From: a virus | Reading direction: 5' to 3' (one strand) | Length of the DNA: 64,000 nt | IMG/VR virus record: IMGVR_UViG_3300011335_000775 | Location: 1-64,000 of that record | In this document: piece after piece, positions 42,374-49,975 of the stretch | Layout: every line of letters starts with the position of its first letter | Position numbering within the stretch: position 1 is the stretch's first letter | Program-made: the position numbers and the translations under genes | Notes under the pieces: generated by a model | What the model saw: only the letters and a program-made list of their open reading frames with translations | Databases searched by the model: none | What the model was told of the DNA's origin: nothing

Positions 42374-42907
42374 ATGGCAATTGTACAAGTTAGTCGCATC
42401 ACAAATCGCAAAGGTCTAGCAGAAAACCTACCGCAATTGGCCGGCGCCGAATTAGGCTGGGCAATTGATGAACGTCGATTGTACATCGGTAATGGTACCT
42501 TGCAAGATGGCGCACCGGTAATAGGCAATACAGAAATTCTCACTGAGTTTTCTACCATCACCCTGCAACAAGGTACTTTTGTACGTGAAAACGGTGTACA
42601 ACGCACATTATTGGATAACACAGCTAGCCAGGTTATTTCAACTTTTGATGCTGCTGTGATCAGAGCAGTGCAGATCAATTATACCATAACCAGAGGAGTC
42701 AACACCAGAACTGGTTTATATACCATTGTTGCTGGTACAGATTCTTCAGGCACTGGGTTGACCGGAAATGATACTGGTTATCAAAACGCATCAACTGGTG
42801 TGACGTTCAGTCAGTCTGAAACATCAAACATTGTGAGTTGGCTAGCGTCGACCACTAGCACCGGCACAAATGCCACTATAAGTTATTCAATAACAAGACT
42901 TGATTGA
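42374..42907 (+). CDS. Tail/baseplate-associated protein with Mtd-N/hyaluronidase-like N-terminus
   Basis: R.G...LPQLA.AELGW..D.RRLYIGNG; late promoter 42347. Confidence 0.6.
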   Translation: MAIVQVSRITNRKGLAENLPQLAGAELGWAIDERRLYIGNGTLQDGAPVIGNTEILTEFSTITLQQGTFVRENGVQRTLLDNTASQVISTFDAAVIRAVQINYTITRGVNTRTGLYTIVAGTDSSGTGLTGNDTGYQNASTGVTFSQSETSNIVSWLASTTSTGTNATISYSITRLD

Positions 42908-43330: not shown

Positions 43331-45652
43331 ATGACACAAATCACAGTTATTAAACGTAACGGAAGAAAAGAACAATTAAGCCTAGAAAAGTGGCAAACCC
43401 AAATTGCCAAAGTATGTTCAGGCATAGCAGATGTAAGTCAAAGCATGGTGGAGATCAAAGCCCAGATGCACTTTTATGATGGCATCACTACCAAAGAGAT
43501 CGACGGCGTTACACTCCGAGCCATAGTAGATCTAATTGACATTGAACACAATCCAGATGTTGGACATACCAACTATCAATATGTGGCAGGCAAGCAACGT
43601 CTTAGCATGTTGCGCAAAGACGTATATGGATCTTATGAAGTTCCCCACCTGTATGAGATTGTGAAGAAAAACGTATCCACAGGCTTGTACACCCCGGAAC
43701 TGTTGGAATGGTACGACGAAGCTGACTGGAATCGCATGCAGGACATGATAGATCATTCCAAGGACGAGCAATACGGTTATGCTGCAATTGAACAATTGAT
43801 TGAAAAATATCTAGTAAAGAATCGTGCCACAAAGGAAACTTATGAAACTCCCCAAGTTCGTTACATGGTTGCAGCAGCCACAGTTTTTCATTCGGAAGAA
43901 CCCAACACGGCTCGTATGCGATACATCAAAGAATACTACAATGCTGCTAGTGATGGTCTTTTTACTCTTGCTACTCCTGTGTTGGCTGGTCTGGGCACTC
44001 CTACTAAACAATTTAGCAGTTGCGTTCTTATTCGGAGTGATGACGACCTTGATAGTATCTTTGCAAGTGGTGAAATGATGGCCAAGTATGCCAGCAAACG
44101 TGCTGGCATTGGACTGGAGATTGGACGACTGCGACCATTGGGTAGTCCCATTCGAGGTGGAGAAATCATGCACACTGGCATGATACCATTTTTGAAGAAA
44201 TGGTTTGGCGACTTGCGTAGTTGTTCACAAGGGGGAATCCGTAATGCTAGTGCTACTGTATTTTATCCTATTTGGCATCATCAGTTTGATGACCTTATTG
44301 TTCTTAAGAACAACCAAGGAACAGAAGAAACCCGTGTTAGACACATGGACTATGGTGTGGTTCTATCCGCATTTTTCTGGCGCAGATTCAAGAACAAAGA
44401 GAACATAACATTCTTTGACCCCAACGAAGTCCCAGACTTGTATGAAGCTTTCTACAAGAATACAGAACTATTTGAAGAACTGTATGTGAAGTATGAAAAA
44501 CAAAAAGGTCTACGCAAAAAGACCATGAGTGCAGAAGAAGTATTCAAGTCGGGCATACTAAAAGAACGCACAGATACAGGACGTATCTATCTAGTGTTCA
44601 TTGACAACGTGATGAAACAAGGACCATTTGATCCCGAATATCATACCATTTACCAGAGTAACTTATGCTGTGAAATTTTATTACCTACTCGCTCTTTTAA
44701 ACGCCTGGATGATAGTAATGGGCGTATCGCTTTATGCACGTTGGGATCGCTCAACTGGGGAGCCTTCCGTAATCCAGAAGATATCAGGCGTGCTGCCCGT
44801 ATTTTGCATCGCAGTCTTAACAATATTCTTGATTATCAGGACTTTTTATCTATACAGTCTAAACTAAGCAATGATGAAATTAGACCACTGGGTATCGGCA
44901 TCACTAACCTGGCATACTGGCATGCAAAAAGAGGTCTCAAATACGGTGAAAAAGATTCCCTAGCTGAAGTCAAAACTTGGATGGAACACATGGCATTCTA
45001 TCTCACCGAAGCCAGTGTTGAGCTAGCACAAGAGCGTGGCGCTTGTTTGGGCAGTGAACACACACGGTATGGCAACGGTGTATTTCCGTGGGAACTCCGT
45101 GCAACAGGTGTGAACGAACTTACAGACTTTGTGCCTGAGTTGGATTGGGAAACCCTGCGTACTAATATGAAAGCACATGGAGTTCGAAATGCCACACAAA
45201 TGGCAGTTGCTCCTGTTGAATCAAGCAGTGTTGTTATTAACAGCACCAACGGTATTGAAATGCCCATGAGTTTGATCAGTGTGAAAGAAAGCAAAGCAGG
45301 ATCATTTGTACAGGTTGTTCCTGAATATCATAAACTTAAAAATAAATATCAACTGATGTGGGAACAGAAAGATTGTGAGAGTTATCTCAAAACCGCTGCG
45401 GTCATTGCAGCGTATGTTGATCAATCCATCAGCACCAATACTTTTTACAATCCTGCACACTGGGAAGATCGTAAAGTTCCTACCACATTGATAGCAAAGA
45501 ACTTAATGCAATCACATGCGTGGGGGTTGAAGACCTTTTACTACAGTCTTATTAACAAACAAGGTAGTAAAGCAACAGCAGAAGATGCTCCCACAATGTT
45601 GGAACCAATCAACTTTGATAATGAAGAAGATTGTGAATCGTGTAAACTTTAA
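43331..45652 (+). CDS. nrdA: Ribonucleotide reductase class Ia alpha subunit
   Basis: ATP cone VIKRNG, QFSSCVL, SQGGIR, QSNLCCEI, APVESSS, DQSISTN, KTFYY, C-terminal CESC. Confidence 0.97.
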   Translation: MTQITVIKRNGRKEQLSLEKWQTQIAKVCSGIADVSQSMVEIKAQMHFYDGITTKEIDGVTLRAIVDLIDIEHNPDVGHTNYQYVAGKQRLSMLRKDVYGSYEVPHLYEIVKKNVSTGLYTPELLEWYDEADWNRMQDMIDHSKDEQYGYAAIEQLIEKYLVKNRATKETYETPQVRYMVAAATVFHSEEPNTARMRYIKEYYNAASDGLFTLATPVLAGLGTPTKQFSSCVLIRSDDDLDSIFASGEMMAKYASKRAGIGLEIGRLRPLGSPIRGGEIMHTGMIPFLKKWFGDLRSCSQGGIRNASATVFYPIWHHQFDDLIVLKNNQGTEETRVRHMDYGVVLSAFFWRRFKNKENITFFDPNEVPDLYEAFYKNTELFEELYVKYEKQKGLRKKTMSAEEVFKSGILKERTDTGRIYLVFIDNVMKQGPFDPEYHTIYQSNLCCEILLPTRSFKRLDDSNGRIALCTLGSLNWGAFRNPEDIRRAARILHRSLNNILDYQDFLSIQSKLSNDEIRPLGIGITNLAYWHAKRGLKYGEKDSLAEVKTWMEHMAFYLTEASVELAQERGACLGSEHTRYGNGVFPWELRATGVNELTDFVPELDWETLRTNMKAHGVRNATQMAVAPVESSSVVINSTNGIEMPMSLISVKESKAGSFVQVVPEYHKLKNKYQLMWEQKDCESYLKTAAVIAAYVDQSISTNTFYNPAHWEDRKVPTTLIAKNLMQSHAWGLKTFYYSLINKQGSKATAEDAPTMLEPINFDNEEDCESCKL

Positions 45653-45665
45653 AGGAAAAAAACAC

Positions 45666-46577
45666 ATGAAAAAATTATTAGTTATATTAAGCGTATTGGT
45701 ATTGGCGGCGTGTAATAAAGCACCTGCTCCTACTGCAACATCAAACACATTTACTCCTACTTTTGTAGTAGACTACAACAAGTGTGGAACTGATCCGGTC
45801 ATCTCTGGAAACTCGGTAACATTTGGTGAAGGAACAAACTGTGCAGCAGGTAGACTTGTATCCGAACAAGGATATGTAAACATCACACAGATCAAAGCAA
45901 CAGTTGATTTGTCAAAACTTGCACAGAACTATGTTAATGCCAGTTTGTATATGATATCAAATCCAGTTCAGCCTGGTGTTCAACCCAAGGGCACCAACTA
46001 CTGTGATGCAGGTGGAAATAATAATCAATGGAATTGCCAAGAGATTGATATCATAGAAACAAATGGTAACAAGATTACACAATCTACTGTGCATCTAGGT
46101 ACAGGTGGGTCCAGTGCTCCACAACGGTTTGAGTATTCATTTGCAGAAACTGCCAACAACAGTTGCTTTAACTATTCGTCAATGACCAGCTCAACCACTG
46201 CGACCAATGGGTTACATAACATGGTTGGTGTCATCGATATGACCAAGCCATTTGATATGGTAACTGATTTTACATACGGAACAACTCCTACCATGACAGT
46301 GACATATTCACAGGATGGCAAGAGCGTGGTAGTATATAATAGTTTGATTGGTTCAGGTGCAGAAGGTAGTGGTACTGTGGATATGACTTTGTTGACAACT
46401 AGCATGAAGAATGGTTACTGGTTGAATCTAGCATTTTGGCAAGGTTACAGCCCAACAGGTCCTGGTTCAGCACCATGGTGGAACAACAGTTGTTCATGGG
46501 GTGCATTATGCAACAGCACAGGATCATACTGGAGCATAAGCAACATTCAAGTAACTGCGGATAGTGTAATAAAATGA
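45666..46577 (+). CDS. Lipoprotein with GH7-like (clan GH-B) glycoside hydrolase domain
   Basis: Lipobox MKKLLVILSVLVLAA-C; VDLSKL, NASLY, GTNYCDA, CQEIDIIETN (ExDxxE), STVH, IDMTKPF.MVTDF, GYWLNLAFW, SISNIQV. Confidence 0.7.
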   Translation: MKKLLVILSVLVLAACNKAPAPTATSNTFTPTFVVDYNKCGTDPVISGNSVTFGEGTNCAAGRLVSEQGYVNITQIKATVDLSKLAQNYVNASLYMISNPVQPGVQPKGTNYCDAGGNNNQWNCQEIDIIETNGNKITQSTVHLGTGGSSAPQRFEYSFAETANNSCFNYSSMTSSTTATNGLHNMVGVIDMTKPFDMVTDFTYGTTPTMTVTYSQDGKSVVVYNSLIGSGAEGSGTVDMTLLTTSMKNGYWLNLAFWQGYSPTGPGSAPWWNNSCSWGALCNSTGSYWSISNIQVTADSVIK

Positions 46578-47677
46578 GCCACGCTCAATACGATCTAACT
46601 ACCAAGACAGATTATTTAACTCGCAAGATGTTTCTGGATCCAGCGGGTCCAGTCACTATTCAACGCTTTGAAGAAGTCAAATATCCCAAAATTGCCAAAC
46701 TTGAAGAAACAGCCCGCGGATTCTTTTGGCAACCAGAAGAAATTAGTCTCAGCAAAGATGCCAACGATTTCAAAGATGCATCAGACGCAGTGAAGCATAT
46801 CTTTACCAGCAATCTGTTACGTCAGACTGCCCTGGACAGTTTACAAGGACGTGGACCCACACAAGTATTCACTCCGGTATGCAGTTTACCAGAAGTAGAG
46901 GCATTGATGTATAACTGGGGATTCTTTGAAACAAATATTCACTCAAAGAGTTACAGTCATATCATTCGTAACATCTATAACGTGCCTAAAGATGTTTTCA
47001 ATACAATTCATGACATAACTGAAATTGTAGGCATGGCGTCAAGTGTAGGCCTATATTATGACAAACTCCACGAACTCAATTGCTTCAGAGAGATCAATCC
47101 AAAAACAGTCAATGAGAAACAACATATCAAGGCAATCTGGATGGCATTGCATGCCAGCTATGCACTAGAAGCATTCCGGTTCATGGTTTCATTTGCCACC
47201 AGTTTGGCCATGGTTGAAAATAAAATCTTCATTGGCAATGGCAACATCATTGGGTTGATTCTTCAAGACGAGTTGTTGCACAAAGGGTGGACTGCATATC
47301 TTATCAATCAAGTTATCAAAGAAGACAGCCGTTTTGCTGACATTAAAGTAGAGTGTGAACAGGAAGTATATGCCTTGTATATAGATGTGATTCGTGAAGA
47401 AAAAGCCTGGGCTGATTATTTGTTCAAGATGGGGCCAGTGATTGGACTCAATGCCAACATTCTCAAAGACTTTGTGGATTACACCGCAGTTGGTGCGCTC
47501 AAAGATATTGGCATCAAGTATCAAGCAGCGGCACCGCGTAGCACACCTATTCCTTGGTTTAACAAGCATTCAGACACGTCGAAGAAACAGTCGGCCTTAC
47601 AGGAAACAGAAAGCACAAACTATGTGATTGGAGTTATGTCAGAGTCGTTAGACTATGATCAGTTACCTGACCTTTGA
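46574..47677 (+). CDS. nrdB: Ribonucleotide reductase class Ia beta subunit
   Basis: [46 protein letters not shown]. Confidence 0.97.
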
Positions 47678-48313: not shown

Positions 48314-48562
48314 ATGACAAAAGCCATCGTCTGGTCAAAAGACAATTGCACATTCTGCGATCAAGCCAAAGCATTGTTGCAGCAGAGAAACATTGCATAT
48401 GAAGAACGGAAAATTGGATACGGATACAGTCGAGAAGACTTGTTGGAGTCTGTGCCCACAGCAAGAACATTACCACAAATTTTTGTGAACAACAACCACA
48501 TCGGCGGGTTCACAGAACTAAGAAAATACATCGAAGAAACCGCCGGCGGCTACGGGGATTGA
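48314..48562 (+). CDS. Glutaredoxin
   Basis: CTFC, RTLPQIF, IGGFTEL. Confidence 0.92.
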   Translation: MTKAIVWSKDNCTFCDQAKALLQQRNIAYEERKIGYGYSREDLLESVPTARTLPQIFVNNNHIGGFTELRKYIEETAGGYGD

Positions 48563-49497: not shown

Positions 49498-49713
49498 ATG
49501 GGACATAGATTTGTAATCATGCGGCATGATGAGATTGAAGTATATGATTGCTATGACGATATCCCCGATGACCTAGACCATGTGATAGAATTTGTTCCAG
49601 AAATACCTCCGGAGCCGCATACTAAACAGCAGCACCAAGAAATAGATGCTTGGCTAGGTCTCTTTAATAGACTCATGGAGAAAGCATATGCGACCAGTGG
49701 CAAGATTGGGTGA
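49498..49713 (+). CDS. Hypothetical protein
   Basis: DIP...DHVIEF.PEIPP.PHT..QH; TAAATA-4 nt-ATG. Confidence 0.65.
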   Translation: MGHRFVIMRHDEIEVYDCYDDIPDDLDHVIEFVPEIPPEPHTKQQHQEIDAWLGLFNRLMEKAYATSGKIG

Positions 49714-49975
49714 TCAAGGAGTTCCTCATTGCAGTGGATTTACCATTGCACAGGGCAGTGCTACGGTATTTGTCAATTCAAAACCGGCAGCCAGAGTTGG
49801 GGATCAGAGCACTCCTCATCTTAGACCTGGCAACCCGTGCCCTGCACATGTCGCTCCTATTTCTAGTGGAAGTTCTAGTGTGTTTGTTGATGGCATTGCG
49901 TTGGCAAGAGTGGGTGATGGACTGGCTGGTTGTACCGCAGTGGCCACCGGCAGTTCAGATGTATTTGCAGGATAA
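49688..49975 (+). CDS. PAAR-domain baseplate spike tip protein (gp5.4-like)
   Basis: VARLGD...HC, GS.TVFVN.KPAARVGD, LARVGD, GS.DVFAG. Confidence 0.92.
   Translation: MRPVARLGDQGVPHCSGFTIAQGSATVFVNSKPAARVGDQSTPHLRPGNPCPAHVAPISSGSSSVFVDGIALARVGDGLAGCTAVATGSSDVFAG

Follow-up and report, generated by a model that had tools for sequence, protein, structure and literature searches.

A compact, divergent GH7-like lipoprotein predicted from the ribonucleotide reductase operon of an uncultured phage

Results

Genes at the locus

The sequence analysed (the window) comprises the first 64 kb of a 113.8 kb IMG/VR virus record. CheckV estimated the completeness of the record at ~33%, and at this length the source is therefore probably a very large, uncultured phage. 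The features described below are collected in Table 1. The GH7-like protein starts with MKKLLVILSVLVLAAC (translation of 45666..46577), and AGGA is found 8–11 nt 5′ of the ATG. The start was placed at 45666 because an alternative longer frame, opening at 45585, runs into nrdA, and because homologs begin at the position of MKK. At the 3′ end, the TGA of the GH7-like gene and the ATG of nrdB share 4 nt (ATGA), and this overlap suggests that the two genes may be translationally coupled. A consensus scan of the + strand gave no promoter-like or terminator-like site between nrdA, the GH7-like gene and nrdB.

A preliminary description of this DNA, made from the sequence without database searches, had placed a GH7 cellulase-like lipoprotein gene between nrdA and nrdB. 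Both flanking genes were confirmed with Pfam, and ~20 independent contigs of viral origin, drawn from different samples, have the order nrdA-gene-nrdB, with nrdB-gene-grx in ~30 more; the junction is not chimeric, since the nrd-linked arrangement recurs across independent contigs.

The homing-endonuclease-like ORF and the 3′ end of nrdB share 19 nt. In related loci nrdB is followed directly by grx, and an ORF at this position was matched only in L001, the window's own genome; on these grounds the ORF looks like a recent insertion in the window's phage. A protein with a PAAR motif (1.5e-17) is encoded at 49688-49972, just 3′ of the nrd/grx/methyltransferase block, and a 177-aa protein with a weak match to Mtd_N (major tropism determinant N-terminal) at 42374-42904, upstream of nrdA. 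The nearest cultured-phage relatives of NrdA are from Xanthomonas, Ralstonia and Stenotrophomonas myophages (54–59%), which may give a faint hint at the host.

Table 1. Positions of genes and protein features in the window.
Feature	Position	Strand	Basis or remark
nrdA, class I ribonucleotide reductase (RNR) large subunit, 773 aa	43331..45652	+	Pfam Ribonuc_red_lgC 2.4e-111, lgN, ATP-cone
Spacer between nrdA and GH7-like gene, 13 nt, with AGGA ribosome-binding site	45653..45665	+	Sequence
GH7-like gene, 303 aa	45666..46577, stop included	+	
Signal peptide and lipobox L-A-A-C; Cys16 putative lipidation site, Asn at +2	45666..45713	+	Translation; weak LPAM_1
Pro/Thr/Ala-rich tether, residues 17-25	45714..45740	+	Low model confidence
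GH7-like beta-jelly-roll catalytic domain (predicted), residues 26-303	45741..46574	+	AlphaFold2 model, Foldseek, VIA-align, 8POF profile match
Y112-C113-D114-A-G116, counterpart of GH7 G-Y-C-D-[AS]-Q	45999..46013	+	Alignment; translation YCDAG
C124-Q-E126-I-D128-I-I-E131-T-N133, predicted catalytic strand	46035..46064	+	Aligned to CNELDIWEAN of 8POF; translation CQEIDIIETN
Q139-S-T-V-H143; His143 counterpart of conserved GH7 active-site His	46080..46094	+	Aligned to QLAVH of 8POF
nrdB, RNR small subunit	46574..47677	+	Pfam Ribonuc_red_sm 1.2e-38
Homing-endonuclease-like ORF, 195 aa	47659..48246	-	PHROG 314 (2.6e-10) and PHROG 655 homing endonuclease
Glutaredoxin (grx), last member of nrd module	48314..48562	+	Pfam Glutaredoxin 1.2e-12

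Sequence comparison with GH7 and GH16

Neither Pfam GH7 (PF00840) nor Pfam GH16 (PF00722) matched the window protein (P0001) or 34 relatives, PF00840 not even at E 10, and the family, which comprises at least 161 metagenome proteins, has no member with a Pfam domain. A family profile was built from a 34-sequence alignment and searched against 177,635 PDB sequences using HMMER. The sole match was 8POF (E 1.8e-8), which on sequence grounds is well past chance. The profile-8POF alignment spans VDxSxL, NAxxY, YCDA, C-x-E-x-D-x-x-E-x-N, Q-x-x-x-H, IDxSKPFxxV, Y/QxG and SLW, and thus runs through all the motifs that the preliminary description had listed as colinear with GH7. Although many GH16 chains were included, the PDB sequence searches returned none of them up to E 10. 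The PDB search is free of the selection bias of the GH7 set used with hhalign.

With hhalign, the family was matched to Pfam-GH7-positive protist and metagenome proteins at 99.6% probability (E 2.6e-24, 199 columns), a biased comparison in that this GH7 set was picked from the query's own hits, its Pfam labels being independent. Eight bacterial GH16 domains, taken from genomes that belong to the order of the Halieaceae genome G001, gave 1.7% probability (E 0.028). A phmmer search with P0001 against 1.8 billion representatives returned, below its own family, weak matches of which four pass the Pfam GH7 gathering score and none is GH16. Among the 30 best language-model look-alikes in the ESM Atlas, 20 were GH7 clusters, with scores up to 0.93; GH16 reached 0.86. 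Identity to solved GH7s is 17–25%.

The GH7-like protein is thus a remote but real GH7 relative and not a GH16 protein; the possibility raised at the outset, that a GH16 profile would score best, is answered by 8POF as the only PDB match and by the hhalign probabilities. Since the curated Pfam GH7 model does not detect it, the protein is best classed with a divergent subfamily of the GH7 lineage and not among routine members.

A single-sequence PDB match to azurin (E 0.07) is probably due to chance, and azurin identity was rejected; the match probably explains the 'azurin' label that one relative (P0007) carries at JGI. DUF3244 was matched weakly in eight family members (best E 0.0026). No GH16 was found by Pfam search in two Halieaceae genomes.

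Predicted structure

The AlphaFold2 model, computed with the family alignment, had a pLDDT of 89.8 and a pTM of 0.87. In a Foldseek search with this model, ranks 1–49 were all GH7 (E 2.5e-10 to 4e-7) and the first GH16 appeared at rank 50. With VIA-align, 8POF gave Z 17.9 over 242 residues (24–25% identity), other GH7 structures Z 16.1–17.4 over 237–249 residues (GH7 identities 17–24%), and the best GH16, VvEG16, Z 15.2 over 184 residues (15% identity). A Foldseek-independent search of 48,161 representatives placed three GH7 representatives first, followed mostly by GH16. Overall, GH16 structures scored Z 11–15.2, below every GH7 representative, with ~60 fewer residues aligned. No close match was found among the BFVD viral predicted structures, in which only distant GH16/ConA-like hits were obtained (identity at most 12%).

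As modelled, the fold is that of clan GH-B, and what it has in addition to the common jelly roll is of GH7 type. GH7 structures, and not GH16 or a lectin, thus head three fold searches, as the preliminary description had anticipated for a GH7 relative. Its proposal of a compact viral GH7-like protein is borne out in homology and fold by these searches together with the 8POF profile match and hhalign. The much shorter loops that it had noted agree with a length of 303 aa (domain ~278) as against 321 in 8POF, 371 in T. reesei EG I and ~434 in Cel7A, with ~240–249 residues structurally aligned. The catalytic domain (~278 residues) is smaller than any solved GH7 matched here, and so short a domain would fit an open cleft and endo action.

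Catalytic residues and selection

Across the 34 aligned sequences no variation occurs at Y95, Y112, C113, D114, G116, C124, E126, D128, E131, N133, N135, Q139, H143 or Q153. C-x-E-x-D-x-x-E-x-N is kept in 107/108 near-full-length homologs, as is YCD[AS]G (likewise 107/108). From the alignment with ELDIWE of 8POF, Glu126 is predicted to be the nucleophile, Asp128 the helper and Glu131 the acid/base; the same E-D-E assignment had been made beforehand, and these three residues and H143 prove invariant. Two invariant cysteines, C113 and C124, occupy the YCD position and the position two residues before the nucleophile; the equivalent pair in TrCel7A, C172-C210, is disulfide-bonded. The mature GH7-like protein has six Cys.

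Y145, W216, H228, W367 and W376 are conserved near the GH7 catalytic centre in TrCel7A (PMC8329511). The counterparts of Y145, H228 and W367 in the GH7-like protein are Y95, H143 and W258. The W216 position (Trp of DIWE) is Ile, Phe or Leu in the GH7-like family, and the Gln of YCDSQ (Q175) is replaced by Gly; with these two replacements, the predicted sugar-binding site differs from that of cellulases.

Comparison with relatives gave dN/dS values of 0.10–0.13 for the GH7-like gene, not far from the 0.02–0.09 of the flanking RNR genes, values which indicate that the GH7-like gene is under purifying selection.

Lipoprotein signal and tether

The signal peptide, MKK-LLVILSVLV-LAAC, consists of a basic n-region, a hydrophobic h-region and a lipobox, in keeping with the lipoprotein signal (LVLAA-C) reported earlier. 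The pattern [LVI][ASTVI][GAS]C was used for the lipobox, which was found in 74/108 homologs under a strict reading and in 94/108 under a loose one. Pfam LPAM_1 scored 13 bits, below its cut-off of 20. In E. coli, the residue at +2 governs lipoprotein sorting by the Lol rule, and absence of Asp leads to the outer membrane. Asp was found at +2 in 0/74 homologs with a strict lipobox. Across residues 1–30 the AlphaFold2 pLDDT was 44–76, and the tether was left disordered. Functions as a spanin or as Cor, suggested by PHROG matches, were rejected because the matches are confined to the signal peptide (residues 1–46).

Occurrence in phages and cassette exchange

At least 108 loci in IMG/VR carry the GH7-like gene, some of them on contigs of 230–303 kb, and it is linked to the nrd module (nrdA/nrdB/grx) in ~55 viral loci; in more distant phages it is placed away from this module. 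A tblastn search of 50,697 deposited phage genomes gave no match to the GH7-like protein. The slot occupied by the gene alternates between nrdA-gene-nrdB (L002-L021) and nrdB-gene-grx (L028-L040, L047, L049, L051-L061, L064) in phages that are closely related (NrdA 83–98% identical), and some loci (L041-L050) have an extra 0.85–1.6 kb between the GH7-like gene and nrdB.

For comparison of the gene with its flanks, the window copy (45666-46574) was used as reference against loci L004-L017, L029, L041 and L058. In phages with the order nrdA-gene-nrdB, DNA identity was 83–89% for the GH7-like gene and 75–88% for the flanks, the gene being higher in five of six loci, with lower dS. Where the gene order was different or an insert preceded nrdB, the GH7-like gene was the less similar (62–68% versus 72–77% for the flanks). 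Because its identity departs from that of nrdA/nrdB in either direction, depending on gene order, the sequence comparison suggests that the GH7-like cassette has been exchanged independently of its flanks.

No glycan pathway recurred consistently among the neighbours of the GH7-like gene, either in the distant viral loci or in Halieaceae. A 664-aa protein with GNAT acetyltransferase-like and GH19 chitinase/lysozyme-like parts (L065:3253-5247; relatives in L023, L063, L070, L071 and L077) recurs at most a few kb from the GH7-like gene in six distant viral loci. Longer relatives contained no CBM and only sub-threshold dockerin-like repeats: P0091 and P0129 (441–455 aa) are extended at the N-terminus, and the added part carries Ca-binding repeats of dockerin type that score just short of the Pfam cut-off, hinting at a possible extracellular, scaffold-bound form. 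The very distant GH7-like proteins P0167/P0200 (411 aa) carry YCDA and LELDLLET after a long Gly/Asn-rich N-terminal part; their contigs measure 268–370 kb and are possibly from a giant virus.

Bacterial copies, protist relatives and phylogeny

To our knowledge, GH7 is regarded as a eukaryotic family, its cellulases being known otherwise from fungi and protists. In the literature collection searched, no report of GH7 in phages, other viruses or prokaryotes turned up, an absence that is not proof. When 185,579 species genomes were searched, the GH7-like gene was found only on four Halieaceae MAG contigs, and 3/151 genomes in a Halieaceae sample carry it. The surroundings of the Halieaceae copies are ordinary chromosomal ones (UvrB, PurK, LysR regulator), and at one locus the gene adjoins a sulfatase and a sugar transporter. 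The chromosomal copies (Halioglobus/Haliea; L082-L085, L096-L098) are 55–58% identical to the phage protein, and in L096 and L098 the gene has an in-frame stop.

The outgroup was made up of protist and metagenome proteins (P0172, P0160, P0165, P0168 and P0181); a eukaryotic source is documented for P0172 and P0160 only. P0172, from the haptophyte Scyphosphaera apsteinii, passes the Pfam GH7 cut-off; P0160, from the labyrinthulid Mucochytrium quahogii, is closer to the phage protein than P0172 and is Pfam-negative. In a quick tree rooted on the protists, the bacterial copies came together in a single clade within the viral sequences, with SH-aLRT values of 100 for that grouping and 93 for its placement, and this nesting hints at a transfer of the GH7-like gene from phage to bacterium.

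Comparison with known systems

The best sequence and structure match is RsSymEG1 (8POF), described as a 'smaller GH7 endoglucanase', from a termite-gut protist symbiont and deposited as a putative GH7. It resembles the phage protein in its small size (321 aa) and shortened loops, and shares YCDA, C-x-E-x-D-x-x-E-x-N, Q-x-x-x-H, IDxSKPF and SLW. The phage protein differs in being a bacterial-type lipoprotein, in its shorter (~278-aa) domain and in having I/F/L for the Trp of DIWE. RsSymEG1 is moreover eukaryotic, whereas genes for the GH7-like protein, which is Pfam GH7-negative, occur in phages and a few bacteria.

Outside the phage/bacterial clade, the nearest proteins are small marine-protist GH7-like proteins (P0172, P0160; from metagenomes P0165, P0168, P0181). 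Several pass the Pfam GH7 cut-off, and hhalign joins them to the phage family at the 99.6% given above. They differ in having Pro-rich tails and membrane anchors, are 28–34% identical, and in the tree are the outgroup to one clade that unites the phage and Halieaceae sequences.

Fungal GH7 enzymes (T. reesei EG I, 1EG1; Cel7A, 1CEL; H. insolens Cel7B) have the fold and the catalytic strand in common with the phage protein (Z 16–17.4 over 237–249 residues, 17–22% identity). The phage protein is 70–130 residues shorter, is without tunnel loops and CBM1, does not conserve W216, and has six Cys in the mature form as compared with up to ten disulfides in fungal GH7.

Within clan GH-B the sister family is GH16 (laminarinases, lichenases, VvEG16, XETs), which is common in bacteria and present in viruses. 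GH16 shares the beta-jelly roll and ExDxxE, but only ~185 residues align, at 8–16% identity, and in the alignments made here YCD, Cys-x-Glu, QxxxH and IDxSKPF matched GH7 sequences only.

The early phage lipoproteins T5 Llp and Cor block protein receptors by binding. As phage-encoded exported lipoproteins unlinked to lysis genes, they would be functional analogues only: Cor gave a weak PHROG match confined to the signal peptide, with no homology past it, and the phage GH7-like protein has an enzyme fold and an intact predicted hydrolase site.

Discussion

The gene is best explained as encoding a minimal, divergent GH7-lineage enzyme, most likely a retaining endo-beta-glycanase, made as a lipoprotein precursor and coupled to nrd; a probability of about 0.78 is assigned to this reading. 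The precursor would be exported by Sec and lipidated at Cys16, and absence of Asp at +2 points to sorting to the outer membrane. In the active site, His143, Tyr95 and Trp258 would line the -1 site around E126/D128/E131. The gene would be transcribed with nrdA-nrdB and translationally coupled to them, and this coupling makes expression in the DNA-synthesis phase, rather than with the late lysis genes, the expected timing. The substrate may be a glucan-type polymer with beta-1,4 linkages that belongs to the envelope or matrix of the host, for example a cellulose-like exopolysaccharide, a capsule or a periplasmic glucan.

Within this reading, a role in destroying a glycan receptor or matrix is the one favoured, at somewhat less than even odds. 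Such an activity would block superinfection and stop progeny from sticking to debris. Early expression and receptor destruction are suggested by gene order and by the analogy with T5 Llp. Other roles for the same enzyme may be nutrient release, envelope loosening, turnover of periplasmic glucan, assistance in cell-wall attack or lysis, or action on environmental polysaccharide after lysis. As pointers to a substrate, no carbohydrate-binding module and no glycan-pathway neighbour was found in the loci and longer relatives examined.

The same fold and chemistry could serve another target, the protein being a glycanase of the periplasm or outer membrane that helps lysis by acting on peptidoglycan or a chitosan-like glycan, an auxiliary metabolic gene product for periplasmic glucan or algal polysaccharide, or a transglycosylase. 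The sugar-contacting positions unlike those of cellulases (W216 to I/F/L, Q175 to G) are consistent with this, as are the sulfatase and sugar transporter beside one Halieaceae copy and the GH19-plus-acetyltransferase protein that recurs close by in six of the distant viral loci; GH7 also includes chitosanase and mixed-linkage activities. However, coupling is to early/middle RNR genes and not to lysis genes, the closest solved relative, 8POF, is an endo-beta-1,4-glucanase by entry title, and a glycan-utilisation neighbourhood is not consistently present, so that this alternative is regarded as unlikely.

It is less likely still that the proteins constitute a family of their own in clan GH-B, new and equally distant from GH7 and from GH16, or an ordinary divergent GH16, with the likeness to GH7 reflecting convergent retention of the ancestral ExDxxE strand. 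That motif is common to both families, GH16 structures also align (Z up to 15.2) and Pfam GH7 gives no match. The likeness nevertheless reaches far beyond the catalytic strand (YCD, QxxxH, IDxSKPF, SLW, the C-terminal SNI strand, and a Cys two positions ahead of the nucleophile), hhalign favours the GH7 proteins (99.6% versus 1.7%), the PDB sequence search is free of GH16 at E up to 10, and ~60 more residues align to GH7, with higher identity.

That the lipoprotein lacks catalytic activity and, with a lectin-like jelly roll, binds carbohydrate or masks a receptor is considered very improbable. Lectin/ERGIC-53-type jelly rolls do occur lower in the fold list (Z ~11), and the N-terminus has PHROG matches to Cor and spanin lipoproteins, but these matches span residues 1–46 only, and binding alone would not need E126, D128, E131 and H143 to be invariant and the motif to be kept in 107/108 homologs. 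The lectin fold considered in the preliminary description is thus set aside on the invariance of the catalytic E-D-E and His across the family. An assembly chimera or bacterial contamination, suggested by the single metagenome-derived record, is negligible in view of the recurrence of the nrdA-gene-nrdB and nrdB-gene-grx orders in ~20 and ~30 contigs, the GC content of 0.41 (equal to that of the flanks) and the 4-nt start/stop overlap with nrdB, an integrated arrangement.

GH7 provides the main industrial and natural cellulases, and a conserved GH7-type enzyme under selection, with its catalytic residues intact, on over 100 phage contigs and in a few bacteria extends the family into the prokaryotic virosphere. 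The predicted exported lipoprotein glycanase wired into a ribonucleotide reductase operon is an unusual phage cargo, and its placement points to remodelling of envelope or exopolysaccharide in the replication phase. Current domain libraries miss the GH7-like family, and viral CAZyme surveys would therefore leave it uncounted.

The phage lineage could also serve, much like an outgroup, in studies of the divergence between GH7 and GH16. More speculatively, and in our view doubtfully, it may be an ancient, minimal GH7 lineage near the base of GH7 that is kept by phages of aquatic bacteria, with phage-derived bacterial copies and an early role as a membrane-tethered glycanase that destroys receptor or matrix. 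If true, this would amount to enzymatic superinfection exclusion and progeny protection, a form not described for phages, and both the GH7/GH16 split and the supposed eukaryote-only origin of GH7 would become testable.
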